Shown in pieces: positions 22,513 through 50,958 of a stretch of 64,000 bases of DNA (positions are counted from its first letter, which is position 1; each line of letters starts with the position of its first letter). The position numbers and the translations under genes are program-made. A model generated the notes under the pieces. The model worked only from the letters and a program-made list of their open reading frames with translations, was not told the DNA's origin and made no database searches. This DNA comes from an uncultured delta proteobacterium. Lineage in GTDB: Bacteria; Desulfobacterota; Syntrophia; Syntrophales; Smithellaceae. The stretch is from NCBI GenBank assembly GCA_903907985.1, contig CAIVQG010000057.1, forward strand, positions 78,614 to 142,613. Reading direction: 5' to 3'.

Positions 22513-25500
22513 TCACCCTCCCATCACTTCCCTGTATTTCAACAGCGCATCTTGCCTGTTCTCTGGCGGCATATTGCTTATCAAATGCATCTTTTGTCTC
22601 AGTAACGGAGCCAGTGTTTTCTTCTCGTCAGGCGTGGCGACCGAATAGACCCGCATTGCCTCCGGGAAAGATAACGACTGAAAGGCGTGAACCATGTATG
22701 GGATCCTCACCGCCTTCTGGATAGATATTACGTCGTTTCTTGATAACTTGCCAGCTTTAAAATATTCCTGGACATCGGTATTGGCCGTATTGTCATGGTT
22801 GCGTAACCGTGTTTCCAACTTTTGTTTTAATTGATTAGTATCAGCTTTTTCTTTTGTCATAGACCCTTTAGGCCGATCCTGCAAAATTTCAGACATAAGT
22901 TTCTGCGCCTTGGTTTTGGTAAATTCTGCCGTGGCCGGCATAATGCCGATCAGGGGCGATAACATACTGGCGGCACTGTCGCCTCTATCACTGGCCTTTT
23001 GTGCCCCGCGCATCCAGAAGGGGACAAATGCCTTTGCAGCATAAACCCCGGCCTGTGCGGTCTGTACCGCCGGGTTTGATTCCTTGTCTCTAATTTGGGT
23101 ACCATAGTAATCTTTATTCTTTGCGATATCCGCCATTAAAGAAATCATCGGATGTGTTTTGTTAAGTAGCGTTGTGCCCGGTTTATTGATATAGGCATAA
23201 ATATCCTTCGCATAGGTCGGGAGCATCATTCGTTCGGGATTCCCGTGTTCGTCTATTTTACCGGTCCGGAAGGCCAGCAGGTCTTTGCCGTCCTTCGGAT
23301 CTTCTCCAGTTAGCAGTTTGGTCATCACGCCGTTAATCAAACCTGTTATCGTTAAGAGCGATATTGTGTAAGCCATTTTGTCGGTCATTACAGGTTTCTT
23401 GCCGTGCGCCATATCGCGGAAGACATTGGCGAAATCATTGACTCCGCCGCCGACTTCCACTATAGTTCCACCTGTCCACCCCGGAGCCCGGAGTAGTGCC
23501 TGAACTACATTTTTGGCGACGTTATTTGTGAACAATCGTTCATAAACAACCTGCCCAAGTCTGGAATCAACCCGGTTCCAAATATACTGCATTGCTGTCC
23601 GAGTATCTTCATGGGTCGCACCCGGATTCTGCTTATTCCACTCTGTTGCCAGTTCTGCAAAAACACCGAATTTCTGACGCGGGACAAGCCATTCAAGAAT
23701 CGGTCGGGCCATTTGCTCAACGAGGGCAAAAGGACTCCGGGCGATCGCCGCCACTTTGCTGCCTTCTGACCAGTTCTTGATCATTTTATCTGTCGTAGTT
23801 GTCCTAAATCTGTTATCCATGTGCGCTCTGGCGCCGGCCATTTCCAGCCATTTAACAATCTGCGGTATTTCTTTACCGGATACAGACTCGCCCTGATATG
23901 CACGGATGAGTTTATCGCCCAGCATCGGGTTTTTGTAAACCTGTAACGGTGATTCAGCCATTAGTTTAACGGCATCTGCTACATCGCCTCTGGCCATCGC
24001 CTTTACGCCCAGGGCGAACTTAGATATGACGGCCTCCATCGAAGTAAAGCCAGCATGGAAGGCACTGCCTACGCCTAGCTGGAACTGATTTAAGGTATTT
24101 GCCGCATTCATATATCCGGCATAAGCAGACCCGACATATTTGTTTTCGTAGAGTGACCGGGAAAGGTAATTATTGATCACCTGGGCCACATCATCTTTGA
24201 CGGCATATCTGAAGGTTTCCATTTCAGGCTTGCCCTGTAATTCATTTGAAAGGTTTGTCTGTTGGCCGGCGAGATTAACCTTTGCTCGTTTTGTGACGAT
24301 CCCGTATGGTTCGGGAATAAGAGTATAGCCTGACGGGGCGGGTTCACTTGCCTTGATCAATACCGCCGTTTTGTCGGCTTCCATTTCCTGCATTACTCTA
24401 TGGGTTGTCACATACTTCTGAACCTCGTGCATTTTGGCGAAAGCCATATCAAGAGGTGTTCCTTTTGGCTTCAAGCCTGCGGCAATACCTTCCTGAATAT
24501 CATCATATACCTTGTTTTTAGTGAAGGCTTTTGACCCTTCCATGTTCTTCGCCCGGTCGTTGAAAAACCTCTCTGCCGCCCCTTCGTCTTCCCACATTCC
24601 GGGGAAGTAACCCTTACGATATCCCACGGCCCCAGGCGTTACGGATTCGGCGTCTTTATAAAGATCGTCAAACATTTTACTTACTGTGTCCGCTATTCCT
24701 TGCAACTCCGGCGTCTCTTGTCTTTTGCCGTTCTGTATCCGGGCGATGAAATCATACTGTTTTTCTTTGGGCATTTTATTGAAAGTGGCATCGGCCAAAA
24801 CACCGGTAGATGTTTGCATCATGTCCAGGGCTTTAGCCGCGACGGAAGTTGATTCACTGTAATGTTTGGAAACTTCGTTCAGTTTCCCTTTTAGAAGTGC
24901 CTCTTGGTGGAAGTTCTTGCCCATTTGAGAAATGATTGTCTCGGCTGCCTTGTTTGCGTTTTCCGTCCGGGCGGCGGGATAAAAAGCACGTTTCAAACCG
25001 TCATAGGCCAATTCAAGCCCTTCCTTGGCGTTTTTAATCGTTGCTACTTTGTCAGTAGTCTTATCCAGTTTGTCTTTGTATTCGTCAATCGTTTTGCTAA
25101 CGGAATAAAATGAAGTCCCTCTTTCCACAGGCATCATTCCCCGGTTTTCCATTGAACCACGGGAATCAATAATGTCTAAAAGATTAATTTCACCGCTCGT
25201 TGCGTTGATGAACATTTTTATATTATGCGCCTCGGAAGGTTCGATTTCCCTCGCAGGAGAATATACGATCATTCTCCGCGCATTGCGCTTTTCTAATTCT
25301 TGGAGCAACTCTTTTTGAGATTCACCCCTTATTTTACGATAATCTGAAAGATCGATCTTCCCCGCGATGGCATTATTCCCATCGAGAAGTAGGGTTCCGC
25401 CTCCGGGAATGTGCCTTTGTGCCGATTCCAATGCTTGATCTGGTCCACTTATCTTTTCGCCGTTGTGGATACTTTCAAATACCCGTCCAATAAGGGGGAT

Positions 25501-28500
25501 TTTAATTTTTCCCTCACCAGTGCCGATGACCTTAGTGTTTTCTCCTTCTTCGTAAGATGAATATTTTGTTGCCGTGACAATAATAGAATCCTGTACGTCC
25601 AGCCCGGAGCCTTCCGCCATATTTTTTAAATCCCGGTAGAAAACATTGTCTTCGTCTGAAAATTTCGTATATTGTGATGGGTGATTATGCGCCACGATAA
25701 TGGTAGTAGCACCGGGTGTGTTAAGCGCCTCGCCGATAATCGCAGAAGGAGACGCTTGCGATTGACCGCGAAGACCAACGGTATGCCGATAAATATGCAT
25801 GAGTTTTCCGTTCTTTCCAAGAACGAGAGATAATAAATGTTCGTCTGGATATTTACTAAGGTATTGTGATGCTACTTCAGCGGCTTCTTGCGCCGAGGTG
25901 ATTTTGCGGGTTGCCGCGCTGACGCTACCGACTTTTTCCCGGCCGACAACGGTTGGTTGGTACGGTATTCCGGCATTGGTTCCGGTATCAGTCCGTAAGG
26001 CTCCTCCCGTGGTATCTGATACTTGTGAGCCATAAACTGTTTCCCCCTTCATATTATTGTAAACACCCGTTCCCCGGTTGTCAACCTGATTGTTGATTTT
26101 TCCCGAAGATATATCCCTGGTTATTCCCTTTACCGTCCTGATCCCAAAGGCATTAACGATCTTGTCCACGAAGTCCTGTATCTTGGATGTGATTCTGCCC
26201 AGCAGTCCTTTCGGTTCCTTGGTCAGCGCATCGGCCAGGAAGTTCGCCCGATCTTCGGCGCCGCCGATGTCCTTCTCGTTCTTTGTTTCAAATTTACCAT
26301 CATTAACAAGGTTTCGGATATGGCGCTGCAATAGGCCCACTTCGTTTTCGTTCAGGATGCCCATGTCTTCCATAAAGTGAACCGATTCATGGTGCAGAGT
26401 CCACTTATCCCCTACGCCTTTGACCAGTTCGATTGCCCCGTCCTGATACTTCCCGGCGATCATTTCACCGTCTTTCAAAAATTCCCTACCATGCCCGATT
26501 TGCAAGACGGCGTGATCCGGGTCTATCCGATCAACAGACTTGACGATTAGATCATACCCGCCCTGGGTTTTGATGGCAATACTGCCATCTTCTAATTGGG
26601 TGACTTCCTGCCCTTTGAAAACAGATTTGACGTCATCGAGAGTTGGCAGGGGATCGGATGTAGCCTTCTCTACAGAATAGAGCGCCGTTCCCTTGTCGGT
26701 TTCTTTGGTCTTAATTTCTTCGATCAGGTTCCCGAAAGCCTTGTCGATTGTTTCTCTTTCCGTTCCCTTGGGCACGGTTTCATCATTTCTTCCGTGGGAA
26801 AGATAAGTGTTTTTGGCCGCTTTTGCTTCCAGTGTGTCACTGACATACGCATCAAAAGCACGGGCAAACTTTTCCACGTTCGTGTTCCAATACGGTTTAC
26901 CAGATTTATCCTTATCTAATTTCCCGGCTTCCTTTGCGTAATCGGTGGTTACTTCCCGCGATGTAGGAATATGCTTCTCCCCGTAATTTTCGGAATTAAG
27001 GTAGGCGTAATGGTCAACATTGGCCTGTAGGCCCTTGATGGAATCAAGCGGATAGATGCGCCCTTTAATTTTCTTGTAAAGATCGCGGATTTCAGCAACT
27101 ACGGGCGAAAAAGAATGAACTGGCCCGGCGCTGATTTTGCCGTCTCCAAGGTCAAGGTTTTTGATACGGTCAGCAAGTTTATCAAATTCAGTTTCATGCC
27201 CGGTGAAATCTCTGCGGATATTTTTCAGCCAGCCGTCAATATTATTTTGGGCTTTCTGTTTGCGATCCGCTATCTCTTTTGCCACTTCCTCGGGTGATAC
27301 ATCAATAGTCTTTTTGTTCATCGACTTAACAATGGAATTGAACAGTGCCGTTATCTCCGGACGGATACCTTCCTCAAACGCTTTAACTTTTTGCCCGTTG
27401 CGTTTCGTGTATCCATCTTCACCAATGCCATGTCCAACGTGTTCCGTTAGATAGGGTTCGCCCCTACCTTCGAGCCCGGCCTGTCTCGCAAAGTAGTGAT
27501 CTACTGCATGGCCGAACTCATGCGCCAAACTTCCCGCGCCGGATGTCCGTGTGAGATTTATCTCATTCACTCCGGGGACAAAGTGTGCGGCAAATTTACC
27601 CGTTCCCTGTGCTCCCACGGCAATGCCCAGCATCCCATTTAACGACATGGCTTCCGGTGTGACATTGAGGATTTCCGCTAGGTCCATAAAGGAATCATAG
27701 GCATGGTTCAAGTGTAATTGACGTTCTGCCTCATTGGTGTCGCCCTTCATCCAATTGCCAAAATTGACACCTTTAAATCCAAATGTTTCTCTTAATTTGT
27801 CGCTGGAAATATCTTCTCCCTCGAGTCGTCTTGCCGGTCCGGTTCTGTCTGCCGCTTCTACGGAAATGCCTTTTTCGTTAATAGTGGGTTTATTTTCTCT
27901 TTTGACTTTTTCCCTGGCTGCTTCTGCCGCTTCTTCCTTCGTATCGTATTGGCCGACGATTCTCTTATATTTATCCAGCAGTAATACCGGTTTCATCTTG
28001 TCAATAGTCTGTTGCGCTTCATCTTTAGTCAGGTACCCTTTGCCATGAGAACTGTAACTGTCTTTTATCCGGACAAAAAACAAATCCGTCTTGGTTCCGT
28101 CTTTCTCGTGCTGATATCCATTGGTAATTTCGGCGGCTTCTTTCCCATTTATAGAATATCCCTGCCGCTGCCAGGATTCTTGTTTTACCGGCCAACCCGC
28201 CTTGACTTCTGCCATCGCCTTTTTACCCTGTTGGTAACCGGGCTGTAACGCACTTAAAAGTTTATTTCCGCCCAGGAGCATAACCTCCGCTCTATAGTTT
28301 TTCCATCCTTCCGGGTAAACCATGTCCAGCAATGTTTTATTACTCTCTGCCATGTCCGTAATAGAAGTAGGACGCCCAAGGTTTGCGCCAGCGATTTTTG
28401 CTTGTTTCCCTGCCCATGCCGCAATAGCCTCTTTATTGTTTGTCCAAGATTTAACGCCGTCCATAACTCGATTTACGGCACTGATATAAAGTTTCATATC

Positions 28501-31500
28501 ATCATCGGTAGCGGTGTTTCTCGTCATTGGTTTTACGGGGATGGAATCATAAACCTGTTTGGCAATGTGGGCGATCAACGGGTCCGTGCCGTCATCAATC
28601 ATCTTCTGATAATCAGGTTTCGGATAGACGTTTTGCTTTGTCGCTTCTTTGATCTTTAACGCAGTATTCTTATCGGCAATGTCTTCCCATTTGATGCCGT
28701 TCTTAATGCGATTACGCTTGTTGTAGGTAAGTTCTTCGCCGGAATCTGCGGTAGTTGATGCCTTTTCTCCCGTATTGACAGATTCGTTTTCCAGTAACTC
28801 AGGATAATCTTTTAATGCTTCAGGCGGTACAGTTTTACCAGACTGTAACGCCATATTTACTTCTCGTTTATGCGTCTGTTTACGATGTTCTGTCCATTCG
28901 GGTCCGGTTGGTTTCCCCTCGTAAGTTTTTGACGAATATTCGTCCCGCGTCATTTCCCACGGTTCTTTTTTGGTTTCCGGTGCAGTCGGCCTCTCCTTAG
29001 TTGATTCAAGGTACTTGGCATAATTGTATTCGGTTTTGTTCATGTCGTAAAACGAACCATCTTCGGCAGTCATACGATAACTTATTTTCTTTGGTGGGTT
29101 AGCAATTATCTCCTCTAATTCTTTTAACCTTGCGGCCTTTATGTTCTGATTACCATTGTCAAATATCCGTGAGCGTTCCTGTTTCGCATCAGACACGGTT
29201 TTCTCGTCAATGGATTCTTTGACAACCGGGACCCGTCCTTCGGCGGACATCTTTTCAATCATTTCTCGGCTGGTAACTTTGCCATAATCAGCATGATTTC
29301 TTTTCGCAGATAATGCGCTAAGGACTTTGCCTTTTTGCAATGGATTTAGGTCGGCAATAAAACCCGTTACATGATTTGTCGAGTCTTTGGCTTCGGTGGT
29401 TTTATTAATTACATCGGCGTATGCCTTCCAATAAGATTTAACCTTGTCGGAAGATGAATTATCAATAAATTCTTTCTTTGATTTGTAATATTCAGTAGCC
29501 TTTTCAATGCCCTTGTCTGCAATTAATTCAGTCGCGCTTTTCGTTCCCATCCGGTATTGGTGTTTATCAAGAGTGGCGGGGGCTGCGGCCGCCGTTTCCG
29601 GCGGTCGTGTGACTGTTTCACCACCTGGGCGATCAGCTAAATTATTCTCAATCGGGTTCAATTTGTCGGCATCAATGGCGTATATCCCTTTGTCGTGTGA
29701 TATGGCAGGTGCTTTTGTTGTAGATTCCCATTTTAGTCCCAGCTTTTTAGCCAATGCGGAGACAGCCTCGTTCGTAGTACCGGCTTTTTCCGGATCAATC
29801 CCACCAAACAATGAGCGGAATTCACTTGAAGGGCCGTTTTTCTTGGCGTCGGCTATGGCTTCTTTTACAACTGCCTCATTGTCTGGAGTAATTCGTTCTT
29901 TTACTTTTTCATAAGAACCTTTACCAAACATTTCATTGATAAATTGTTCGCCTGGACCCCAACTGTCTTTATTGATTTTGCTTAAATCATAATTTTCTAG
30001 CCATTTCTGTGCTTCTGCCCGTGTTTTGAATTTCTTTGATTCTTGCGCCCATCCCTTATGCCGAATCCCCGCTTCCCAATAAGGCCCAGGATTGGCCGAT
30101 ATTTCCGGTGCATTAAGTTCAAATTCTATTCGGAGTTCTTTGTTTTCCCACCTAGCACTTCCGCTTTGCCAAAGATCAATTTCTAATCCGTTTAAGTTCC
30201 CCTTCCATAATTTCGCCGCGTCAGACACGGGTTCTTTCTTCGCCGCAAACAGGTCTTCATTCTTCGGCGTGACCTGCTCGGAAAGTGGTTTGCTTATTTC
30301 TGTTTCGGGATTTATAAGACTAAAGGTATCGCGCTCAGACGCACCGGGAATGTCGGTTTGCTTTGCCTTTACTTCTTCTGGCGTCAGTTTTGTTTCGGCG
30401 GGTTTTGGTTCTGCCGTAGATGCTATTTCCTCAAAAAACTTATCTGCTTCATCGGATATGAAGTCTAGTTCGTCTTCTGTGATGTCCTTCTCTGTTGCAA
30501 TTTCTTCAATAGCCGTTGTTTTAAGATCGTTTTCACTTTCTGAAATTGCTCCGGCGTCAATTCCCTCTTCTTCGAGGTTTCTGATTTGTTCTTCATACGC
30601 CATCCTTTCGAGTTCTGCGGCTGTCTGTCTGTAATCGCCGCTGGTTATTTCCCGGTCTGCTACACTTTTAATATGATCCCATATAACGGATTGCCGACGT
30701 GTCATCTGCTTGCCAGCCATCCCTTTATTAATTATGTACGCTATACCTTTGGCGGATATGCTTTCTTTTTGTCCGGTAGGCGAATTCTTACCACCAAACT
30801 GCTTCACCATATCAGAAAACCATCGGGGATAACCTGATTTCAGGTATATGTCTTCTCCCGTGGCTGAATCCGATCCTTTAAATCCTCCCGCTTCGCCGGT
30901 CATGAGGCGCGAGTGCATATCGCCCAGGGCATAGGTCTGAATGTCAGACAGTTTTGTTTCTTCTTCTGTCTCTGCCGCGTGGGCCGCTAACCTTGTGGCA
31001 AGATCCTGGCGCTCAAAAGGTGTGCCGCTAAACATATCCTTTGTACCGGTATTGTGCAAGGATAGACTTTTGCCTGTTTTATACTCAAATAATCTTCTGG
31101 CCTCTTTGTTCTGTGGATGGAGCAGGTCGTTATATTGCCCGGTATCAATCGCGTGGTTCACCCAGGCGGCTTGTCGCAGTGCTTCCTTTTGGGTATACTT
31201 GCCTTTATTATAAAGATACAACAACCGGGCGTCTTTCTTTAATCCCAGCCAGTTTCCTTCGGGGGCTGGTGCCGCGTTTACGGGCGGCACTGTAACTGTG
31301 TCAACACCTGGTTGAACAGCTGTGGTATTGTCCGCAATCCCTGTAACTGCCTGCGTTCCCGCTGCGGCTTGCGAGGATGGCGCAGGTTCAATGATCGGGG
31401 ACGGGGTTGATACATTGGCCGTCTCAATCGGCAAGGTTGCATCGGTTTGCAGGTCCTCGGCCGGTTTTATGGGTTCGGTCGCCCCTGTCAACTCGGCCAA

Positions 31501-32901
31501 CCGTGCCTTATCTTTTTCAAAGGCATCTTCCCAAGTTTTGTAAATATCAGTGCCTTTATAACCGGCATTCTTATCAAGGTAATGCGCCTGTTTTGCAATG
31601 CTGGTTTGCAGTTCACTAATTTCTTTATTGCCCGTTGTGTTTTCTGCCGCCCCCTTCCCTTCCGGTGCGTTCAAATCGTCTCCTGGCGCCTCAAATTCCG
31701 GCACATCCATTTCCATGTTTTTCGCCGGGATAATCTTTTTACCCGATGCCATATCTTTCTTTAATTCCGATTCTATATCGGAACGCGGTTGAATGACCTG
31801 ATTGACTTTTGCTTTCATGTCTCCGGCAATGACTCCGTTCAGACCGTCCCTGAGCGCCGGGTATTTTTCCTTGAAACGGTCAATGTCGCCATCGTCGTAA
31901 ATACCGTTATCTTTTAATGTCTTGATCATTTCCAGCGCGTTATAGTGTGTAAATGGTTTCTCGTTGACCTTACCCGTTCTTAACCCCTCGTCTATTGCGT
32001 CATTAGCAAAAGAACCGACCTGCATTTTCTTTATGAAATCTTCAACCTCGGGAGTTGATTTTGCCCCTTTAATCGCATTGAAGGCCGACGATATTCCATG
32101 TGCGCCGGCAAAGGTTCCCGCACCCGTAACGATATTCTGGATTCTTTGTTGCCAATCTTCGGCTGGTTCCGTGGCTCCGGCACCACCGCCAAGTGCCGCA
32201 CTTGTGACATATCCTAATCGGGATTGTATCGTTTGTTCTGCCGGGGTAAGGGCCACTCTTTCCGCCACGGGCAGTTTTGCATTAGTATTGATCTTCTCCA
32301 GGACTTTGCCCACGGATTCCGGCATTAGCGCCCCTAATCCTTTTGATATTACCTTGCCACCCGCGCCGAAGGTCCCGAACATGAGTGCGTCTTTCCATGC
32401 GTTGCTCAACCTGTCTTCGCCTTCTTCGGGTTTGCGGATCGCTCCGTAAATGCCTCCAAGGACTCCACTCGTTGCGGCGGCACCTGCTACCGTTGCGCCC
32501 TCTGGCAACATAGCCGCTGCCGGTATTAATCCGACGCCCATTCCCGCAAGCCCTGCCGCACCTGTGGCTATTTTATGCACCATGCCGGCATCTTCGGGAG
32601 TCTTTGCGGCTGGGGCATACCCAAAGGTCGCCCCATGAACAAATGCAGTAGGAATGTCCTCAAAACCGGCTGGTGCAATATGAGCAACTGCATCGCGTAG
32701 TTTTTCGGTGAAGGGTCGTCTGTTTTGGGTGTCCTCCTGGACGACAGAATCAATGCCCTTTGCCTTCTTCCAAGTATCGTAATCAGGGTATTCTTTATCG
32801 TATCCGCCGCGAGTGAAAGCATCCTTTGCCACGGCTTCCAAGGGAACGTCGCCATATTGATCTTTATATTTTTGCTGGTATCCGAGAATATCAAAAGGCA
32901 T
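22513..32901 (-). CDS. Giant polyvalent virion protein (~3460 aa) with zincin metallopeptidase motifs and a RadC/JAB domain
   Basis: A single uninterrupted ORF. HEFGH lies at 27508-27522 in the context GAGSLAHEFGHAVDHYF, with an upstream FGNW...LNGMLGIAVGAQG block. A second HExxH (HESVH) lies at 26377-26391. The RadC-type JAB motif AHNHPSQ lies at 25675-25689. I chose the ATG at 32901, which has a GAGAGGA RBS; the track start at 32991 overlaps the upstream gene. Confidence 0.8.
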   Translation of the reverse strand: MPFDILGYQQKYKDQYGDVPLEAVAKDAFTRGGYDKEYPDYDTWKKAKGIDSVVQEDTQNRRPFTEKLRDAVAHIAPAGFEDIPTAFVHGATFGYAPAAKTPEDAGMVHKIATGAAGLAGMGVGLIPAAAMLPEGATVAGAAATSGVLGGIYGAIRKPEEGEDRLSNAWKDALMFGTFGAGGKVISKGLGALMPESVGKVLEKINTNAKLPVAERVALTPAEQTIQSRLGYVTSAALGGGAGATEPAEDWQQRIQNIVTGAGTFAGAHGISSAFNAIKGAKSTPEVEDFIKKMQVGSFANDAIDEGLRTGKVNEKPFTHYNALEMIKTLKDNGIYDDGDIDRFKEKYPALRDGLNGVIAGDMKAKVNQVIQPRSDIESELKKDMASGKKIIPAKNMEMDVPEFEAPGDDLNAPEGKGAAENTTGNKEISELQTSIAKQAHYLDKNAGYKGTDIYKTWEDAFEKDKARLAELTGATEPIKPAEDLQTDATLPIETANVSTPSPIIEPAPSSQAAAGTQAVTGIADNTTAVQPGVDTVTVPPVNAAPAPEGNWLGLKKDARLLYLYNKGKYTQKEALRQAAWVNHAIDTGQYNDLLHPQNKEARRLFEYKTGKSLSLHNTGTKDMFSGTPFERQDLATRLAAHAAETEEETKLSDIQTYALGDMHSRLMTGEAGGFKGSDSATGEDIYLKSGYPRWFSDMVKQFGGKNSPTGQKESISAKGIAYIINKGMAGKQMTRRQSVIWDHIKSVADREITSGDYRQTAAELERMAYEEQIRNLEEEGIDAGAISESENDLKTTAIEEIATEKDITEDELDFISDEADKFFEEIASTAEPKPAETKLTPEEVKAKQTDIPGASERDTFSLINPETEISKPLSEQVTPKNEDLFAAKKEPVSDAAKLWKGNLNGLEIDLWQSGSARWENKELRIEFELNAPEISANPGPYWEAGIRHKGWAQESKKFKTRAEAQKWLENYDLSKINKDSWGPGEQFINEMFGKGSYEKVKERITPDNEAVVKEAIADAKKNGPSSEFRSLFGGIDPEKAGTTNEAVSALAKKLGLKWESTTKAPAISHDKGIYAIDADKLNPIENNLADRPGGETVTRPPETAAAAPATLDKHQYRMGTKSATELIADKGIEKATEYYKSKKEFIDNSSSDKVKSYWKAYADVINKTTEAKDSTNHVTGFIADLNPLQKGKVLSALSAKRNHADYGKVTSREMIEKMSAEGRVPVVKESIDEKTVSDAKQERSRIFDNGNQNIKAARLKELEEIIANPPKKISYRMTAEDGSFYDMNKTEYNYAKYLESTKERPTAPETKKEPWEMTRDEYSSKTYEGKPTGPEWTEHRKQTHKREVNMALQSGKTVPPEALKDYPELLENESVNTGEKASTTADSGEELTYNKRNRIKNGIKWEDIADKNTALKIKEATKQNVYPKPDYQKMIDDGTDPLIAHIAKQVYDSIPVKPMTRNTATDDDMKLYISAVNRVMDGVKSWTNNKEAIAAWAGKQAKIAGANLGRPTSITDMAESNKTLLDMVYPEGWKNYRAEVMLLGGNKLLSALQPGYQQGKKAMAEVKAGWPVKQESWQRQGYSINGKEAAEITNGYQHEKDGTKTDLFFVRIKDSYSSHGKGYLTKDEAQQTIDKMKPVLLLDKYKRIVGQYDTKEEAAEAAREKVKRENKPTINEKGISVEAADRTGPARRLEGEDISSDKLRETFGFKGVNFGNWMKGDTNEAERQLHLNHAYDSFMDLAEILNVTPEAMSLNGMLGIAVGAQGTGKFAAHFVPGVNEINLTRTSGAGSLAHEFGHAVDHYFARQAGLEGRGEPYLTEHVGHGIGEDGYTKRNGQKVKAFEEGIRPEITALFNSIVKSMNKKTIDVSPEEVAKEIADRKQKAQNNIDGWLKNIRRDFTGHETEFDKLADRIKNLDLGDGKISAGPVHSFSPVVAEIRDLYKKIKGRIYPLDSIKGLQANVDHYAYLNSENYGEKHIPTSREVTTDYAKEAGKLDKDKSGKPYWNTNVEKFARAFDAYVSDTLEAKAAKNTYLSHGRNDETVPKGTERETIDKAFGNLIEEIKTKETDKGTALYSVEKATSDPLPTLDDVKSVFKGQEVTQLEDGSIAIKTQGGYDLIVKSVDRIDPDHAVLQIGHGREFLKDGEMIAGKYQDGAIELVKGVGDKWTLHHESVHFMEDMGILNENEVGLLQRHIRNLVNDGKFETKNEKDIGGAEDRANFLADALTKEPKGLLGRITSKIQDFVDKIVNAFGIRTVKGITRDISSGKINNQVDNRGTGVYNNMKGETVYGSQVSDTTGGALRTDTGTNAGIPYQPTVVGREKVGSVSAATRKITSAQEAAEVASQYLSKYPDEHLLSLVLGKNGKLMHIYRHTVGLRGQSQASPSAIIGEALNTPGATTIIVAHNHPSQYTKFSDEDNVFYRDLKNMAEGSGLDVQDSIIVTATKYSSYEEGENTKVIGTGEGKIKIPLIGRVFESIHNGEKISGPDQALESAQRHIPGGGTLLLDGNNAIAGKIDLSDYRKIRGESQKELLQELEKRNARRMIVYSPAREIEPSEAHNIKMFINATSGEINLLDIIDSRGSMENRGMMPVERGTSFYSVSKTIDEYKDKLDKTTDKVATIKNAKEGLELAYDGLKRAFYPAARTENANKAAETIISQMGKNFHQEALLKGKLNEVSKHYSESTSVAAKALDMMQTSTGVLADATFNKMPKEKQYDFIARIQNGKRQETPELQGIADTVSKMFDDLYKDAESVTPGAVGYRKGYFPGMWEDEGAAERFFNDRAKNMEGSKAFTKNKVYDDIQEGIAAGLKPKGTPLDMAFAKMHEVQKYVTTHRVMQEMEADKTAVLIKASEPAPSGYTLIPEPYGIVTKRAKVNLAGQQTNLSNELQGKPEMETFRYAVKDDVAQVINNYLSRSLYENKYVGSAYAGYMNAANTLNQFQLGVGSAFHAGFTSMEAVISKFALGVKAMARGDVADAVKLMAESPLQVYKNPMLGDKLIRAYQGESVSGKEIPQIVKWLEMAGARAHMDNRFRTTTTDKMIKNWSEGSKVAAIARSPFALVEQMARPILEWLVPRQKFGVFAELATEWNKQNPGATHEDTRTAMQYIWNRVDSRLGQVVYERLFTNNVAKNVVQALLRAPGWTGGTIVEVGGGVNDFANVFRDMAHGKKPVMTDKMAYTISLLTITGLINGVMTKLLTGEDPKDGKDLLAFRTGKIDEHGNPERMMLPTYAKDIYAYINKPGTTLLNKTHPMISLMADIAKNKDYYGTQIRDKESNPAVQTAQAGVYAAKAFVPFWMRGAQKASDRGDSAASMLSPLIGIMPATAEFTKTKAQKLMSEILQDRPKGSMTKEKADTNQLKQKLETRLRNHDNTANTDVQEYFKAGKLSRNDVISIQKAVRIPYMVHAFQSLSFPEAMRVYSVATPDEKKTLAPLLRQKMHLISNMPPENRQDALLKYREVMGG

Positions 32902-32914
32902 TGTTTTTCCTCTC

Positions 32915-33631
32915 TTAAAAACCAAAAATGTTCGCTCTTTGTTTTTTTCGTACGCCGGGAAGCATCCCAAGATATTTATCTTCTTCTTCATCTTGTGTCA
33001 TTGGCTGGGGACCGGATCGGAACTCCATACTCTGCCCACCAGTTAATGTTGATCGTGCTGCTGGCAGGACACCCGGGGTTGCGAGAGTTGCGGTTGGCCC
33101 TATGGGATCACCAGGTCCAGCCGGAGTTATTGCCGGACCCGGTTTATCAAACGACCTCACTGTTGCCCCACTGTTGCCCTGATTTTGGTCCATTAATTTT
33201 TGGCGCAAGTCGATAATCTGATCTGATGTCATTAAAGGATTACCTTTAATCGCCGCCGTAATGACTGCCTCATGGCTTCCTGCCTTCCCCGTTGTACCAG
33301 CATATAGTCGATCGGCTTTATACTTTTCTCCCTCAAGGGCACTGGCAGCGACGTCTCGATGCTGGTTTGCACCAATCTGAGCGACATTGGCAGCGCTGTC
33401 GTTTGCCAGGTTTTGTCTGGCCAGCAATCCGGTTTCGGTAAGGTTCTGTTTTACCAGGTCGTTATCATGGGCCCGAATGTCTTTAGCGGTGGCGAATTGG
33501 TTTGCTTGCTCCGTTGCCCTGTGTTGTTCGTAAAGCAGGTCTGATCTTCTTTTTTTCTCCTCTGCTTGCTGGAAAATATCGCCGCCTTTTACCTGTTCCA
33601 TTATACTGTCAATCATAGCGTTCAAATCCAT
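32915..33631 (-). CDS. Hypothetical virion protein
   Basis: 238-aa ORF tightly packed in the late operon, with a low-complexity Pro/Gly-rich C-terminal half. Confidence 0.55.
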   Translation of the reverse strand: MDLNAMIDSIMEQVKGGDIFQQAEEKKRRSDLLYEQHRATEQANQFATAKDIRAHDNDLVKQNLTETGLLARQNLANDSAANVAQIGANQHRDVAASALEGEKYKADRLYAGTTGKAGSHEAVITAAIKGNPLMTSDQIIDLRQKLMDQNQGNSGATVRSFDKPGPAITPAGPGDPIGPTATLATPGVLPAARSTLTGGQSMEFRSGPQPMTQDEEEDKYLGMLPGVRKKQRANIFGF

Positions 33632-33643: not shown

Positions 33644-35089
33644 TTAGTTTGTGCAGATGATTCCCGTTATTTTCTTGTAAAACGTCGCCGGGATGATTAC
33701 ATAGGTTGCCGGTTCTTTTAGTTTATCCGTATTCTTGAATGTCGGCTGATCCAGCCAGGCAAATGATTTCTTGGCCTTTTCTTTCTCATCCACCGTGACA
33801 GGTGTTGCCGTGCTGTCCAGTTTCAAGACAGCGACACGATCACCAAAGGCGTAAGAGAAGAAATCAGAGGAATCAATGATGACTTCGCACCCTTGAATCT
33901 TGACGTAATACTGATTGCCGATTCCGTCGTCGTTTCGATCTTCCTCCAGAATTACCTTGGTAACTACGCCGGAAGTAAGATTGCCTGTTTCCATCCAGTT
34001 ACCGGCATAAAGAAACGGTGAGGATTCCTGGAACCACCAGACATGGGGAGGACAAGCAACCGGTCGGCAAAGTATCCCGATAAACTCTCCGGGGACCGGA
34101 AATGTACTATCTTTATGAATCCAGTACCGCATCCAGAATTTCGGTTTTACGTCTTCCCCGTAATCCTTTATTCCACTGGAAAACAATTCTACGTCCCGGC
34201 TGGCCGCGCACACCGTCTCGCCCGCCGGCGCATCTGTGTTTTGCCCGGCTACGGGAGTCTCGGGAACTAAATACCCGCGTTCGACAAGGTGCCGGCCATA
34301 ACAATAATTCTCCCCGGCCAGCACATTGCCGTTCCCGTCTTTCATATCCGGGAAGATCCCCGGTTCACTTTGCAAGGAAGGTTTGTCCCTGTCCTGTAAA
34401 ACAACCGCAGCCCTGGTGTAGTAATTAGGAAGCGCATCCACCGCTGTAAATTTATACCCGCTCAATTTTGTTTCCTGCATTAAAGAAATGACTTCCATTA
34501 TTCCCAACTGTCCGATAGGGAAGGAAATATAGCCAACGTAATCATTGGGGTTAAAATCTTTCGGACCGTCCGAAGCGTATCTTGCCCCTATGCCTTTCGT
34601 CCATAATTCAAAGGCCAGTGTATTGATCCAGTAAATACCGTTGTTTTGGTATTGGGTTTTCACTTTCATGTCATAAACATCAAGGGCTGTGTCAATACTC
34701 AACTGCTTTGCCAAATCCCTCAAAACCTTTAATGGTTTCAAACCCGGAAGTTTTGTCAAGAAACTTAGGTTTTCCGCCATGTACGGCCTGTAATCGTAAT
34801 GGTCAGCATCAGCATTGGAATATGAGCCGGAAGTCGACGGCGTAATCGGAGTCCCGGTTTTCGGGTCAAAATACCTCGCCATAAAATTAGCATGGGTAAA
34901 CAGATACCAGAGATCAGTCGCAAGGGGGGCAGCCGATGCGGTGCCTGTATCACTGCGTACAAAGTCTCCCGGCTCCATCGTCGCCACAAGGCCGTCAATT
35001 TGATTCACAAGATAGGAAAGAACATTCCCGCTGCCGGCCAGACCTTTCATACTTGCTAAGATTCGGGATAATTGCTCTTTATCTGCCAT
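33644..35089 (-). CDS. Hypothetical phage structural protein
   Basis: 481-aa ORF in the late operon, with a 1-nt overlap to the upstream gene. Confidence 0.55.
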   Translation of the reverse strand: MADKEQLSRILASMKGLAGSGNVLSYLVNQIDGLVATMEPGDFVRSDTGTASAAPLATDLWYLFTHANFMARYFDPKTGTPITPSTSGSYSNADADHYDYRPYMAENLSFLTKLPGLKPLKVLRDLAKQLSIDTALDVYDMKVKTQYQNNGIYWINTLAFELWTKGIGARYASDGPKDFNPNDYVGYISFPIGQLGIMEVISLMQETKLSGYKFTAVDALPNYYTRAAVVLQDRDKPSLQSEPGIFPDMKDGNGNVLAGENYCYGRHLVERGYLVPETPVAGQNTDAPAGETVCAASRDVELFSSGIKDYGEDVKPKFWMRYWIHKDSTFPVPGEFIGILCRPVACPPHVWWFQESSPFLYAGNWMETGNLTSGVVTKVILEEDRNDDGIGNQYYVKIQGCEVIIDSSDFFSYAFGDRVAVLKLDSTATPVTVDEKEKAKKSFAWLDQPTFKNTDKLKEPATYVIIPATFYKKITGIICTN

Positions 35090-36246
35090 TACACGTCCTT
35101 CTTAACGGTATGTTTTAAGGTTGTCACTATATCCGCGGCCGCCAATGTTTTCTGCACTTCTATCGCTGCCAGAATTTCCGTGTGCCTATCCGCCACCTTT
35201 GTATCCATTACGGATATATGTGCTGTATCAAGTGATGTTTGAAGGGTTTTAGCAGCATTGGCAAAGGTAACATCCAACCCGACCAGTTTTAGTCTATTGT
35301 CGAGTTCCAGGTCTTTTTCTTTCCGGCGCATGGTCAATGCATCTTCTCTCCCGGTCTGTTTAACGTCCATCATAACTACTTTACTGTTGTAACTATCCGT
35401 TGCCTGCTGTGTTAAGATGGTGCGGGTATAATCAATTTCCGCGTCCACTTCGCCCGTTTTCGCTGTGGCCAGTGTTACCCGTGAAGCGGCGACGCCCAGC
35501 TCGGCTTCGGCTTTCTGTGTTCTTGTCCGTTCAATGGTCAGTTCACTGTCCAGTAACCCTATTTTATTTATGGCCCGGTCAGTTTCCGCAATATCAATTT
35601 TCGTCCGGGCTGTTCTTAAATCAATATCCACAAGTTCCTGCGCCGCCTGTACCGTGTCGATCTGTATTTTCAAAACGGCATTGGCTGTGTCCAGTTTTTG
35701 AATATCAACTTTGGCCGACTGAATTGCCTTGTCCGCAATTTCGATATCAACTTCACTTAAATGAAGTGACTCCATCTCGATATAGGCTTGAACCTCCGTG
35801 ATCCGGGCGGCGGTCTTCTCTGTTTCGCTGATGACTTTGGCGGCGAGGGTTTCCAGTGCAGCCCGGTCGGAAGCCAGCGCCGCTATTTTCGCATCCCATA
35901 TATCGTCGTCAGCTTCTATTCCCGTCCTTTTCGTGACCATCTTTTCATCGTGGATGAGTTGGTCAATCCCTGACAGGTACCGTTTTGATACGATGTCGGC
36001 TACGGTCACCCTCTCCTGGGTGGTCAATGCTGCTATTTTGGAATTATAATCAGCCAGCAGGTTTGCCAGGTCCACGGATTCTATCTCTGTCAGGTACTTG
36101 TGCTGGTTTAAATATGAAGTGGAATACAGGCCATAGATAATTCCACGTTCTACCGTCTGTGCGTCGTCAAACGGGAATGAATGAACGAAAGGCGCCCATG
36201 TCATTGCTTCCCTCGCCATTGCTCTTGAATATGCTTCAGTGGACAT
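35089..36246 (-). CDS. Coiled-coil phage structural or internal protein
   Basis: 385 aa, highly alpha-helical with heptad-like character (rich in A/E/T/I/D). Confidence 0.55.
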   Translation of the reverse strand: MSTEAYSRAMAREAMTWAPFVHSFPFDDAQTVERGIIYGLYSTSYLNQHKYLTEIESVDLANLLADYNSKIAALTTQERVTVADIVSKRYLSGIDQLIHDEKMVTKRTGIEADDDIWDAKIAALASDRAALETLAAKVISETEKTAARITEVQAYIEMESLHLSEVDIEIADKAIQSAKVDIQKLDTANAVLKIQIDTVQAAQELVDIDLRTARTKIDIAETDRAINKIGLLDSELTIERTRTQKAEAELGVAASRVTLATAKTGEVDAEIDYTRTILTQQATDSYNSKVVMMDVKQTGREDALTMRRKEKDLELDNRLKLVGLDVTFANAAKTLQTSLDTAHISVMDTKVADRHTEILAAIEVQKTLAAADIVTTLKHTVKKDV

Positions 36247-36256
36247 ATTTCACCTA

Positions 36257-37465
36257 TTAACTAATTAAGTGGATTAACGATGCCGACAACTTTGCCGCTG
36301 CCTTTACTTTGGCCTCCTGTTGCATTCCATCAACCTGATAACCTGTAAGGCGGCTGTCCGCGTTCCTTTCCCCGGCCGTTAACGTGTTTGTGCTTGTCAA
36401 CCTGGTCGCATTCCTTATGGTGTCGGCTGCGGTCCTGTCAGCGATACCGGTTGTCGCGGTTGCCCTTTCTTCTTCCAGGGTTTCAGCAAAGTCTTTCATA
36501 ACGTCGTTTTGATAGGTCATGGTCAGGTCTTTTTCATGGCCGACGAGATTTTGTTCCAACCCGAATTGCGTTTCTTCCAGTGTTCTCCTGTCGCCCATCA
36601 ACTCCAGATGTTTCGTTTCCGTCTTGATCTCTGCGGCGAGTTCGTCCAATTGATAACCGGATTTTGTTATGGCTGCTTCAGCCTGAGATATTTTTTCAGC
36701 GGCGATCTGTAATTCCGTTGGAATCTGCTTGTTCGTGATCAGCGTTGCGTATTCTTCGGACTCCGCGGCCAGGGCGTTTATGAAAGGCGTTAAGGTCTGC
36801 TTCTTTAACAGCAATTCATTTTCTGCTGCCATGAAGGCAGAGTATGCCGCCGCCTTGGATTGTTCAATGGCAAGAAGTTCCTGCTCTTTGGTCAGGATCA
36901 CTTCGATAATGGGTAAAAGTTCCATTCTCTTTTGTGCGGTCAATAGTTTCCCGTTGGCCAGTTGGACCTCGTAGGGCGATACTTCCCCTTCCAGTTCGGC
37001 CAGGGTCTTTCTATGCGCCTCCATGGCCAGCTCGATTGTCGTTTTTGCTTCCATCAGGGTAATTACCCGTTTGGAAACTTCGATGGCCAGCAGGTCCAGG
37101 GTGGCCTCGTCAGTCGCTTCGCCCTTTTTGATCCCTTGCAATTCCGCATCCCAGGCAGTCATTAGGGCCTGCTTGTCGATCTCCCAGGTTATCAATGCTT
37201 CTTTATAAGACAGGTCGTAAGCAATGCCGGATTGTTTCAGCTCCCTATCAATCGTTTCGGTAAGGATCTTGTAATTGAGGTCGGACAATCCCATCTTCGC
37301 GGCAAGTTCAATTCTGTTTTCGGCGTCATAGGCGAAGCCGGGTATGGACAGAAAGCCGCGTCCGGCAATTGCCGCCATCAGTTTGTCGTGATCATCCTGA
37401 TACTTGGAAATGATCGGCGTCTTTGCTTTCCGGTATTGTGCCTGTTCCCGTAATGTTTCAGTCAT
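36257..37465 (-). CDS. Coiled-coil phage structural or internal protein
   Basis: 402 aa, helical and E/A/L/T-rich. Confidence 0.55.
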   Translation of the reverse strand: MTETLREQAQYRKAKTPIISKYQDDHDKLMAAIAGRGFLSIPGFAYDAENRIELAAKMGLSDLNYKILTETIDRELKQSGIAYDLSYKEALITWEIDKQALMTAWDAELQGIKKGEATDEATLDLLAIEVSKRVITLMEAKTTIELAMEAHRKTLAELEGEVSPYEVQLANGKLLTAQKRMELLPIIEVILTKEQELLAIEQSKAAAYSAFMAAENELLLKKQTLTPFINALAAESEEYATLITNKQIPTELQIAAEKISQAEAAITKSGYQLDELAAEIKTETKHLELMGDRRTLEETQFGLEQNLVGHEKDLTMTYQNDVMKDFAETLEEERATATTGIADRTAADTIRNATRLTSTNTLTAGERNADSRLTGYQVDGMQQEAKVKAAAKLSASLIHLIS

Positions 37466-37472
37466 ATCAAAC

Positions 37473-39572
37473 CTACTTTGTCAGGACGATTGGTATTAAC
37501 TTTATGGTATCAAGCGACTCATAATCCGCAACAGACAATTTCCATTTTTTCGCTTTTAATTCATGGGAGGCAACGACTTTGCCCCGGGTGTCAATATTGT
37601 AGACCTGTCTTGATCCGTCGTCGGTTTCAAAGACCATTACCGGGTTAGTTCCGGATATCCCCAAATAACCATGGCGGAATCTCTTTTGATTGGGTGCGCC
37701 GAAGTCTGTTTCGCTTAAAATCGCCCCAGTGTGTATTGGACTGCCGGCGTCGGTTGTCCCGGTGAGTTCGTAAATCCCCGTGTCATTGGCGCCGAAAGCT
37801 CTGTTCTCGAAAACGCAATAAGAGTTGAAATCAAATCCGGAATACATGGACGGCATGAACTTAGGAGTATTCAAAACGTAACATTCCCAAACTTCCCCGC
37901 TGAATTCTACCGTGACATCCATGGCCAGCGTGTCATAAACCGCTGAGTAAAGAGTACCGTGGCTGGTGAGCGTTTCCGTGAAAGTGATTGGGTCAGTAAC
38001 CGTCAGGCCAATTCTGTTTATCAGGCTTGCCGCATCCGCCAAACCGATTGATTCCTGAACCGTGTCCATGAACAACGCCGCAATGCTGGCAACATCAACC
38101 GCGAATAGAATGTCGTTAATCAAAAGACTCAAAACATGAGCCGGAGAATCGGATAGCTCCACGGCGTCGTTTACAGATTCGCTTCCGGACCGGATCGCAT
38201 TTACCAATTCCGTAAATCCAAGGTATTCGAGAACGGCGATGGTCAAGGCTCGGGTTACGATATCGGTGATCGTGATTGATTCTGTTATTGTGTCCGAAAA
38301 GCGTTTCCCCATCTGCAAAATATCGTAAAGATTAAGGGTGTCCGGTACAATCTCCCGGCCGTTCCAGTTGTTTGTCTGGCTGTCAATCAAGGTAAGCCAA
38401 TCAGAAATAATCAGGCCCATGACCGTTGAAAGAGAATCGGTAAGCGTTAAAGCCTCTATTATTGACGTTGCCCAGGCCGGATTGAGTTCGTCGTAAAGCA
38501 TGATTATTTCTTCCATGAGTAAGGTAAAATAGAAAGAGCTACCATCCACCATGCCCAGGCTCTCGGTAAGTGTGTCGTTATAATGAGTAGGCGAGGTGGC
38601 CTCGAATAGATCATTAACTGTGGCCTGTTCGTAGAGTTCATTTACCCTGTTGACACCAGTAAAATCCCAACCAGTATTGTAAAAACCGTCTTCATTCCCG
38701 GCGCTGGTTAATGCGTTAAACGTGGCCCCGCCTGATGCACCAGCTCTAATCAATTTGCACTTAGTTGCGGTAACGGTTCCGCTGGATTTTACTAAGTTAA
38801 ATGTAGATGCGCTGCGTAAGATAAGACTATAATTATTAACACCTGTAAATGTCGCGGATGTACTTATCGTAGTAGTGGTTGCTCCGGAATATCCATCACC
38901 AAATAATATATCGCCATCTCCGGTTATCGATAATGTCTTTATTGTGGCCGTATCAAAACTATTTAAAGTAACAGTAACGCCGGAAACTGCGGAGATATTT
39001 ATTGTTCCATATGTTCGGGTAGAATAGGTATTACAACCAAAATCCATGTAACAGTTATTTGATCCAACTGCATAAAAAGCGGTAAATGCGAATGTCGCAT
39101 TCGCTGCATCCATTGCAGGACAATTCTGGGCATCTACAAGGGCTATGAATGTGCCCCATGTAGCATTGGTGCCATTGACCGTTATAGTCGATGTGCCCAA
39201 AGAGCATACGGTACAGGGATACCCTATAGAAAAACTCCGATTTACCGTTATGTTATAGTTATTCGTGGTTAAACTGCCGGAGCAATCAAATGAATATATA
39301 TTAGTGAGAGCCGAGGATAATGATAAACTACCTGCGGATGTAACACTGTATACAACGGCTTTCGAGGCTGAATTATTGATGGCGCAGAGAACTGCCATGT
39401 TTATGGTGAGGGTTAAATTGTATCCATTGCCAGTAGGAAACGAAGAAGCGTCGAATACAGCCGTATCTCCTGTTGTAGGAACAGACGCACCGCCTGTCCC
39501 ATTACTGGATGTTGACCAGTGGGCCGTATCAGAAAAATTACCGCTATTTCCTATCCAATATCGATTTGCCAC
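37473..39572 (-). CDS. Tail fibre/spike-like protein
   Basis: 699 aa. The N-terminus MANRYWIGNSGNFSDTAHWSTSSNGTGGASVPTTGDTAVFD and Thr/Ser/Asn-rich beta-type repeats are typical of phage fibre proteins. Confidence 0.5.
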   Translation of the reverse strand: MANRYWIGNSGNFSDTAHWSTSSNGTGGASVPTTGDTAVFDASSFPTGNGYNLTLTINMAVLCAINNSASKAVVYSVTSAGSLSLSSALTNIYSFDCSGSLTTNNYNITVNRSFSIGYPCTVCSLGTSTITVNGTNATWGTFIALVDAQNCPAMDAANATFAFTAFYAVGSNNCYMDFGCNTYSTRTYGTINISAVSGVTVTLNSFDTATIKTLSITGDGDILFGDGYSGATTTTISTSATFTGVNNYSLILRSASTFNLVKSSGTVTATKCKLIRAGASGGATFNALTSAGNEDGFYNTGWDFTGVNRVNELYEQATVNDLFEATSPTHYNDTLTESLGMVDGSSFYFTLLMEEIIMLYDELNPAWATSIIEALTLTDSLSTVMGLIISDWLTLIDSQTNNWNGREIVPDTLNLYDILQMGKRFSDTITESITITDIVTRALTIAVLEYLGFTELVNAIRSGSESVNDAVELSDSPAHVLSLLINDILFAVDVASIAALFMDTVQESIGLADAASLINRIGLTVTDPITFTETLTSHGTLYSAVYDTLAMDVTVEFSGEVWECYVLNTPKFMPSMYSGFDFNSYCVFENRAFGANDTGIYELTGTTDAGSPIHTGAILSETDFGAPNQKRFRHGYLGISGTNPVMVFETDDGSRQVYNIDTRGKVVASHELKAKKWKLSVADYESLDTIKLIPIVLTK

Positions 39573-39581
39573 TTTTCACCT

Positions 39582-40151
39582 CTACACATCTGCTAATGTT
39601 ATTGTACACGTTACTAGAAGAACATCATTGGCCACGACTGATTTCGCAGCCGCAAATTGACTTGCCGCAAATAAAATCCCGCCGCCGGCCGTATTGCCCT
39701 TTGTTGTCGGAGCTGAACCGCCGCCGCATAAAAAAGCCCCGTAAATCGTCTTTGTGGCGTTCATCGTAAATGTCGACTTATTGGCAACATTGGTCGTAAC
39801 CTTGTTGACTGCAGCAGCTTCATTATAGACCACTCTCGCAGATTCATTATAAGCCGTGCTTTCCGTAAATCCGGGTACGGCATAGGTATCAGTGACTAGC
39901 GGTGTATAATTATTTTCAAACAATCCCATGTACCAGGTGCCGATTGCCGTTGTTCCGTGAAAGGTAGCATCAAGCATGCTGTTTAATCCCTGCGTTGTGG
40001 TCACATTCTTTTGCGCCCACTGGTCAACCAGTTTGCCGTCCCGGTATTGTTCAAATTCCCACCATGATCCGATAGGGATAATGGCTTTCATGGACGGGCT
40101 GCTGATTAATTCAGCCGAAAACTTTGCATTTAGAGGAAGTATGGATTTCAT
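39582..40151 (-). CDS. Small beta-rich tail-region protein (paralogue of 42192-42776)
   Basis: 189 aa. It shares YxGxFxNNxTPxxxDT, FTxNAxxTxYGAFL and DVLxVT blocks with the 194-aa protein. Confidence 0.55.
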   Translation of the reverse strand: MKSILPLNAKFSAELISSPSMKAIIPIGSWWEFEQYRDGKLVDQWAQKNVTTTQGLNSMLDATFHGTTAIGTWYMGLFENNYTPLVTDTYAVPGFTESTAYNESARVVYNEAAAVNKVTTNVANKSTFTMNATKTIYGAFLCGGGSAPTTKGNTAGGGILFAASQFAAAKSVVANDVLLVTCTITLADV

Positions 40152-40153
40152 TG

Positions 40154-42022: not shown

Positions 42023-42037
42023 CGGTGAATCAGGCAG

Positions 42038-42184: not shown

Positions 42185-42191
42185 ATCGTCC

Positions 42192-42776: not shown

Positions 42777-42808
42777 CGTCTCATTCTCCTTTATGTTTAA
42801 TGACAAAT

Positions 42809-42891: not shown

Positions 42892-42922
42892 GTGATTCTA
42901 ATGACTAAATTTAGCTACAGCA

Positions 42923-47059: not shown

Positions 47060-47068
47060 TAGCCACTC

Positions 47069-47506: not shown

Positions 47507-47537
47507 GATGTACCTCCTGAAAGTTTGCTGGGAGCGT

Positions 47538-50957: not shown

Positions 50958-50958
50958 A

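Follow-up and report, generated by a model that had tools for sequence, protein, structure and literature searches.

A giant polyvalent protein of a podovirus-like prophage: conserved ends, swappable cargo and two predicted zincin domains

Of all phage proteins, the giant polyvalent ones are believed to encounter the defences of the host first, yet almost none of them has been dissected. The window analysed here, 64,000 nucleotides (nt) of contig CAIVQG010000057.1 (positions 78,614 to 142,613) from an uncultured delta proteobacterium, holds a prophage in which a single gene encodes a protein of 3462 amino acids (aa). The locus raises the question of how such a protein is built and what it does. 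The explanation that we consider probable is that a short-tailed prophage, inserted at a tRNA-Lys gene of a Smithella-like bacterium, encodes it as its giant internal (ejection) protein. By analogy with related phages, we infer that the protein is packaged in the head and ejected together with the DNA, a proposal that we hold with fair confidence.

Conserved ends and exchangeable middle of the giant protein

Comparison with orthologues showed that the protein is composed of an N-terminal anchor (N-anchor), a swappable cargo of ~2000 aa and a C-terminal module (C-module), and that only the middle is exchanged among orthologues (coordinates of all features are given in Table 1). In the protein P0002 (1539 aa), encoded at a syntenic locus, the counterpart of residues 6-522 (58% identity) is followed with hardly any gap by that of residues 2583-3461 (63% identity). 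In the protein of L007 (2577 aa), GGDEF and ART-PolyVal domains lie between the two ends. Since P0002 and L007 share both ends with the giant protein and do not share its middle, the ends are conserved and the middle is variable. The orthologues provide a natural experiment, with the same ends in the same gene slot and a cargo of ~0, 1000 or 2000 aa, which separates the chassis from the payload.

The N-anchor had been described in the initial annotation as a Gly/Ala-rich hydrophobic N-terminus, and the composition agreed with this: residues 101-300 contain 27-38% G+A, with a transmembrane-like segment at 114-132, and residues 80-294 are 48% identical to L007. A database search with the N-anchor gave one match, and a scan of genome contigs revealed no relative of it. 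Segments of the anchor region are also present in the giant protein of MetMV (AZF89913, 3002 aa), whose gene has the same place within a virion module that is collinear with ours (residues 1-74 with 53% identity, 289-482 with 36%, and 600-827 with 37%, the last of these lying in the cargo of our protein). The MetMV giant differs in having an LPD38-type module at its C-terminus and in lacking the zincin cassette, the RadC domain and the C-module.

For the C-module, a family of ~880 aa, 50 homologues were found. The proteins that contain them range from 540 to 1713 aa, most being 1100-1700 aa long, and no Pfam domain was found in the C-module region of any of them. Its AlphaFold 2 (AF2) model was mainly helical and confident, with a mean predicted local distance difference test score (pLDDT) of 79.7 and a predicted template modelling score (pTM) of 0.80. 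In BFVD the fold was matched by 54 entries at E<=1e-3 (best 3.4e-16; TM 0.4-0.47 over ~900 columns), and these were C-terminal pieces of large phage proteins whose heads are annotated as LPD38, ART-PolyVal, RelA/SpoT, Zeta toxin, LT_GEWL or helicase. No Pfam model, the LPD models included, matched the N-anchor, the C-module or the second HExxH domain described below. As for the cargo, residues 523-1376 comprise at least three blocks (599-912, 871-1092 and 1117-1321), each with its own small set of relatives, and the segment between the RadC domain and the C-module had no detectable relatives. A search for internal repeats in the giant protein found none.

The gene itself is well defined. The initial annotation had reported one uninterrupted ORF of about 3460 aa at 22513-32901; both the length and the coordinates were correct, and the gene lies on the minus strand. 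The open frame spans 22513..32991 and would yield 3492 aa if counted from the first ATG, at 32991. We preferred Met31, whose ATG at 32901 was also the start chosen in the initial annotation, because the Shine-Dalgarno sequence AAGAGAGGA lies 7 nt upstream of it and the preceding gene stops at 32915, whereas the ATG at 32991 has no Shine-Dalgarno sequence and overlaps the upstream gene. With 3462 codons at 46% GC, the open frame cannot have arisen by chance. The protein is a singleton at 90% identity clustering in a public protein collection. Searches of phage and E. coli genomes by megablast, and of phages by tblastn with the C-terminal 982 aa, gave no match, and in profile searches against PDB sequences the RadC domain was the sole match. 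The three pieces of the protein used as queries were searched against a database of 5.8 billion proteins. We also noticed that there is no cysteine anywhere in the 3462 residues (22516-32901, minus strand).

The single ORF could in principle result from an assembly artefact or from a recent accidental fusion of an N-anchor gene with an HExxH and C-module gene, or the prophage could be decayed and the gene non-functional. In line with such a fusion, L009 has one gene for the anchor protein P0051 (1188 aa, with GGDEF) and another that begins with the second HExxH domain, four genes away from the first; as to decay, the integrase, the replication genes and the second attachment site (att) are not visible within the window. 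Nevertheless, the identical 3462-aa product is found in public gene calls on two contigs of different lengths (188,783 bp, and a separate ENA contig of 14,578 bp), the frame is open over 10.4 kb with all catalytic motifs intact, and P0002 and L007 also have both ends in one ORF. We therefore regard artefact, accidental fusion and decay as very improbable.

Zincin cassette, second HExxH domain and RadC domain

The cargo contains a predicted zincin metallopeptidase, which the initial annotation had recognised by the motif HEFGH at 27508-27522. Residues 1686-1808 matched the CLCA_X profile (NCBIfam NF041907) with E=2.6e-31 over profile positions 3-120 of 250, and the motif HEFGHAVD occupies residues 1794-1801. 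A further recognisable domain, absent from the list in the initial annotation, is LPD1 (54.4 bits against a Pfam cut-off of 27), and the LPD1 segment alone matched the CLCA_X profile weakly (E=0.014) at positions 173-239. In an alignment of 41 homologues, H155, E156 and D162 of HEFGHAVD were invariant and H159 nearly so (>=90%), and inside LPD1 residues Y365, E371, A374, R375 and F377 were invariant. On the basis of the CLCA_X profile match and the invariant residues within it, LPD1 can tentatively be read as a C-terminal lobe belonging to this CLCA_X-type zincin. In the AF2 model of the cassette (pLDDT 83), a helix at 82-105 precedes three strands at 120-144, the HExxH motif lies in a helix at 153-168, and a later helix, at 369-387, carries the invariant E371. 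This secondary structure fits a zincin, but Foldseek found no significant match to the model in the PDB.

The CLCA_X family goes back to Lenart et al. 2013, who established it from proteins of phages and plasmids (PMC3650047). Its members are mainly phage, prophage and plasmid proteins, many of them longer than 1000 aa, and they share with the giant protein an HExxH motif with a conserved Asp after it. The difference is that the domain is apparently split here, profile positions 3-120 and 173-239 being separated by ~190 conserved residues. To describe the distribution of the cassette, we used an exhaustive HMMER search with residues 523-1640. It returned 394 representatives of clusters, and E was 1e-10 or lower for 225 of these; the statistics refer to the 139 proteins that first appeared in this search among the 150 matches listed. 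Residues 1377-1660, the zincin, the middle segment and LPD1 were found together in 102-129 of these 139 listed relatives. Because the four segments co-occur, the zincin and LPD1 are, as far as the comparison of sequences goes, one cassette of ~700 aa common to hundreds of giant proteins. The middle segment was also considered as an insertion peculiar to the giant protein, and this was ruled out, as it is kept in 102 of the 139. The listed relatives have a median length of 3002 aa, 70 of them exceed 3000 aa and the longest reaches 5613 aa; the size of our protein, which the initial annotation had called unusual, is thus not unusual. Proteins of ~1000 aa annotated as 'LPD1 domain-containing', some of them on plasmids, begin with the cassette and end in KfrB.

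The second HExxH motif of the initial annotation, HESVH at 26377-26391 (residue 2171), belongs to a domain of ~190 aa without Pfam or NCBIfam match. An iterated hidden Markov model detected this domain in 13 distinct proteins, all 13 of which have kept the HExxH. Two other assignments were rejected: the motif does not lie inside LPD1, as it belongs to a separate conserved domain, and the domain is not MuF_C, as P0052 carries both side by side. Neither Pfam MuF nor MuF_C matched the giant protein. In nine proteins, standalone relatives included, the domain is directly N-terminal to the C-module, whereas in the giant protein the RadC domain and ~130 further residues separate the two. We regard this domain, predicted from conservation of its motif, as a part of the architecture, situated at the junction between cargo and C-module.

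The RadC-like JAB domain, which the initial annotation had located at about 25580-25975, was matched by Pfam at 25546-25902 with 66.2 bits (cut-off 22.1) over profile positions 1-118 of 121, and by the NCBIfam RadC models with E=4e-17. The HNHPS motif lies at 25675-25689, and the JAMM residues, the Glu of 'DEHLLSLVL' and HNHPSQYTKFSDED, aligned with those of PDB 2qlc. The combination of domains had been considered unusual; it is indeed rare, RadC being present in 2 of the 139 listed cassette relatives, but it is not unique, as giant proteins elsewhere also have RadC and LPD1; RadC was seen next to LPD1, GGDEF and Kinase-PolyVal, or else next to MuF_C and ART-PolyVal. In the survey of Iyer et al. 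2017, RadC turned up solely in conjugative elements' polyvalent proteins and was predicted to process nucleic acids or nucleotides (PMC5512222). Its occurrence is now extended to polyvalent proteins of the phage type.

Polyvalent proteins, as described by Iyer, Burroughs, Anand, de Souza & Aravind 2017 (PMC5512222), are single polypeptides with several enzymatic and LPD domains and a zincin-like metallopeptidase (MPTase) as a hub. They are encoded among virion genes, and the prediction is that they enter the host along with the DNA and are cleaved by their MPTase. The giant protein is built likewise: a single prophage ORF among virion genes combines a CLCA_X zincin with LPD1, the second HExxH domain and RadC. 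Its domain content places it with the phage-type polyvalent proteins as one more member of the described class, and it leaves the picture of that class unchanged. What is gained for annotation is the reading of LPD1 as a CLCA_X-type C-lobe, the junction HExxH domain, and the C-terminal family with a confident model.

If the protein is processed, one or both zincins would cut the polyprotein, either in the head or after ejection, and free effector pieces. By analogy with known polyvalent proteins, self-processing by one or both zincins is our tentative proposal, and we consider it possible. According to Iyer et al., self-processing is the commonest role of the MPTase, and DdrB of P1 is processed before packaging (PMC5512222). 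The junction HExxH domain, which in nine proteins is located exactly at the boundary of cargo and C-module, as would suit a cutting site, is the obvious candidate for separating the two. Alternatively, the protein may be packaged and ejected as an intact chain whose zincins act on host targets, either the envelope and peptidoglycan or defence proteins. The MPTase-containing N4 vRNAP, ArdC and TraC1 are transferred unprocessed (PMC5512222), the characterised relatives of CLCA_X are secreted proteases acting on other proteins (PMC3650047), and the metallopeptidase domain of the phi24B giant protein was proposed to assist the passage of the conduit through peptidoglycan (preprint 10.64898/2026.04.10.717836). 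These precedents notwithstanding, no peptidoglycan-hydrolase family of Pfam or NCBIfam matched the giant protein, and both the common role of the MPTase and the position of the junction domain speak for cutting. An intact chain acting on host targets thus appears rather unlikely to us.

Position among the virion genes and comparison with known ejection proteins

Rightward from tRNA-Lys, the prophage consists of lysis genes, morons, the giant gene and the virion module. The proteins of the module are 35-70% identical to those of MetMV (MK170447). The giant gene is the last gene of the module, co-oriented with it and starting 14 nt after the preceding module gene, and this last slot of the virion module is its conserved place in at least four related phages. 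No tape measure, tube, sheath or chaperone family was found among the prophage proteins. By its gene content, the phage is short-tailed and podovirus-like. The initial annotation had noted the absence of a tape measure and suggested from it that the giant protein might double as an ejection protein; the absence was confirmed, although it is explained by the short-tailed architecture and not by a substitution.

The best-studied counterpart of the giant protein is gp47 of phi24B, one of the giants (2783-2811 aa) of the 933W-group Stx phages, exemplified by gp35 of Stx2-phage 86, an 'LPD5 domain-containing protein' to which the phi24B giant (2807 aa) is 91% identical. It too is encoded by the last gene of the late (virion) module in a podovirus with a GP4-like tail. 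In the preprint cited above, it was abundant in virions by mass spectrometry and absent from the cryo-electron microscopy maps, and it was proposed to be an ejection protein packaged in the capsid (10.64898/2026.04.10.717836). Its zincin and LPD1 cassette is homologous to that of our protein, with an identity of 30% over 399 aa (E=6e-34) and of 38% over LPD1 (131 aa). The phi24B giant has a different N-terminus, carries LPD5 and MuF-C and lacks RadC, whereas ours has RadC and the second HExxH domain. The C-terminal ~870 aa of the phi24B giant were matched in the MetMV giant with E=4e-87, and this second C-terminal module of ~860 aa with LPD38 is common to the giants of MetMV, Stx-86 and phi24B and to 14 others. 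We noticed that the LPD38-type module (L001 18298-21006; L002 ~14050-16839; L019 ~5700-8300) resembles the C-module in size and terminal position, with no sequence relation detected between them.

Relatives of the C-module gave a second comparison. On three phage contigs of ~40 kb, a gene for a large tail protein (phrog_376) is followed by genes for proteins of 130-160, 180-200 and 474-619 aa, then by the C-module gene, and after it by fibre-like genes, an order and range of sizes that match gp12-gp17 of T7. Like gp16 of T7, the C-module protein is alpha-helical, the largest of the virion module and the last in a run of internal-protein genes of increasing size. The giant protein differs from gp16 in having no lytic transglycosylase or lysozyme domain and in being 2.6 times longer. 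Another relative, P0028, carries a phage tail lysozyme at its N-terminus, and others carry LPD37 or ddrB-ParB. When the C-module was compared with gp16 and gp15 of T7 and with the LPD38-type module, three weak alignments coincided at C-module residues ~98-203 ('...IAD.V..M...Y.P'); they were treated as chance, since a test for a transitive link failed.

Taking these comparisons together, the giant protein would be made late with the virion proteins and packaged in the capsid through its conserved ends. At infection it would be expelled through the tail, its helical and hydrophobic ends helping to build, or to cross, a conduit through the envelope, as in other podoviruses. Early in infection, RadC and the unnamed modules might then target nucleic acids or the defence of the host; for RadC and blocks 523-1376 this assignment is speculative.

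Several observations weigh against packaging and ejection of an active protease. The homology of the C-module to gp16 or gp15 of T7, or to the LPD38-type module, was unsupported by hhalign (probability 5.6% for gp16, 0.3% for gp15, and 0.9% for the LPD38-type module of phi24B and MetMV), and gp16 had no HMMER match. In Foldseek searches against the PDB, the C-module model had no significant match (best E=0.2), nor did the cassette model, for which anthrax lethal factor appeared at E=1.5. The CLCA_X score of 109 bits is below the NCBI whole-protein cut-off of 260. Close relatives of the C-module also occur in islands of ~15 kb without capsid genes, so the C-module is not confined strictly to complete phages. 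Neither the early region of the prophage nor its second att site was seen in the window, and the element may therefore be defective. Finally, we infer the presence in virions and the ejection, and the activity of both zincins is a prediction.

The giant protein might also be a non-virion, cytoplasmic multi-enzyme of the late phase or of lysogeny, a toxin, superinfection-exclusion or anti-defence factor that merely adjoins the virion genes. The neighbouring moron region contains a candidate defence gene (PDC-S13), and standalone C-module proteins are found in the small capsid-less islands, both of which would be in line with such a role. On the other hand, the gene shares strand and tight spacing with the virion genes, its slot is kept in synteny in four related phages, relatives of the C-module are encoded in the middle of virion modules, and the phi24B relative was detected in virions. 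A cytoplasmic role therefore seems improbable. A PADLOC search with the giant protein gave no match, a result that is neutral either way.

The prophage host is, according to the affinities of its genes, bacterial and Smithella-like: in clustering at 90%, the flanking SerA groups with proteins of Smithella and of Smithellaceae metagenome-assembled genomes (MAGs), and the closest homologue of the zincin is from a Syntrophaceae MAG. The archaeal host of MetMV was predicted only in silico (PMC7164591). Since the collinear module occurs in a bacterial, Smithella/Smithellaceae-like genome at tRNA-Lys, together with a lysozyme-like lysis gene (translation judged by eye), the archaeal assignment of MetMV is probably wrong, and a syntrophic bacterium co-occurring with Methanosarcina is a likelier host.

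Capsid-less islands and other features of the window

The capsid-less islands (Table 1) lie beside host genes and encode standalone proteins of 1374-1701 aa with the HExxH domain and the C-module, 43-49% identical to the C-module of the giant protein. They contain an integrase, toxin-antitoxin pairs, DnaB or a primase-helicase, and AntA/Bro; a small terminase subunit only was found in L017, and none of L004, L005, L017 and L016 has genes for large terminase, portal or capsid. The partner proteins encoded upstream of the standalone genes are mostly dissimilar and had no match in PHROGs; those of L005 (577 aa) and L017 (600 aa) are homologous and form the only matching pair. In their gene content, the islands look like satellites of the phage-inducible chromosomal island (PICI) type that carry their own giant ejection-type protein. 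One could go further and suppose that the N-anchor and the HExxH/C-module form a general delivery chassis for effector cassettes freed by the junction protease, and that the islands are satellites loading their own ejection protein into the capsid of a helper, an extrapolation that we consider doubtful and hardly likely.

Table 1. Coordinates of the giant gene, its parts, the prophage and the C-module islands (window positions, except for islands)
Feature	Position	Strand	Remarks
Giant ORF	22513..32901	-	3462 aa and stop codon
Shine-Dalgarno sequence AAGAGAGGA	32908..32916	-	7 nt upstream of ATG 32901
N-terminal anchor	31336..32901	-	residues 1-522; kept in P0002, P0051, L007 and MetMV giant
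Gly/Ala-rich hydrophobic stretch	32002..32616	-	residues ~96-300; transmembrane-like segment 114-132
Unnamed cargo modules	28774..31335	-	residues 523-1376
Zincin cassette (~700 aa)	26662..28773	-	residues 1377-2080; upstream domain, CLCA_X zincin, middle segment, LPD1
CLCA_X zincin N-lobe	27478..27846	-	residues 1686-1808
Pfam LPD1	26704..26910	-	residues 1998-2066; invariant Glu in 'E.FARAF'
Second HExxH domain	26077..26649	-	residues ~2085-2275; HESVH = 26377-26391, residue 2171
RadC-like JAB (PF04002)	25546..25902	-	residues 2334-2452; E...HNHPS...SxxD intact
Post-RadC segment	25156..25545	-	residues 2453-2582; no detectable relatives
C-terminal helical module	22516..25155	-	residues 2583-3462
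tRNA-Lys	17314-17388		left prophage border, adjoining lysis genes
Virion module	33644..55066	-	collinear with MetMV 10.3-32.8 kb
Adaptor	44241-45272		343 aa; SU10-adaptor and GP4 gp77 podophage domains
Capsid protein	48500-49477		
Portal	51247-53187		weakly SPP1-like
Large and small terminase subunits	54.9-56.9 kb		end of virion module
Island L004	1-15106		standalone HExxH and C-module protein
Island L005	1-18005		standalone HExxH and C-module protein
Island L017	1-14914		standalone HExxH and C-module protein
Island L016	60-6582		standalone HExxH and C-module protein

The giant gene had been said to occupy a quarter of the prophage. This holds only for the part visible in the window, of which it takes up 26% (from tRNA-Lys at 17.4 kb to the small terminase gene at 57 kb). 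No duplicate of the tRNA-Lys att end was found within the 64 kb. With neither early genes nor a second att site in the window, the prophage either extends past 64 kb or is incomplete.

Within the virion module, a protein of 622 aa (40154-42022, minus strand) has a BTLCP/Peptidase_C93 transglutaminase-like cysteine protease domain (E=9e-18), and a part of it is common to a 270-aa protein of MetMV. The module gene for a 299-aa protein (46160-47059) contains a direct repeat of 116 nt with 80% identity, its copies being 447 nt apart (46494-46609 and 46941-47056). An exact 22-nt direct repeat, TGCGAAGGCTTAATAAGTACCT, is present in two intergenic gaps of the prophage, 23.5 kb apart (19359-19380 and 42870-42891), and may be a shared regulatory site.

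Two genes matched defence families of PADLOC. Among the morons, which separate the lysis genes from the giant ORF, the gene at 20533-21393 (plus strand, 286 aa) matched the candidate defence family PDC-S13 with E=1.5e-117. Just past the terminase end of the prophage, and after an HU/IHF-like gene at 57474-57752 (judged by eye), the gene at 58014-61004 (plus strand, 996 aa) gave a full-length match to RT_UG5-nitrilase, a DRT defence reverse transcriptase, with E=2e-120.

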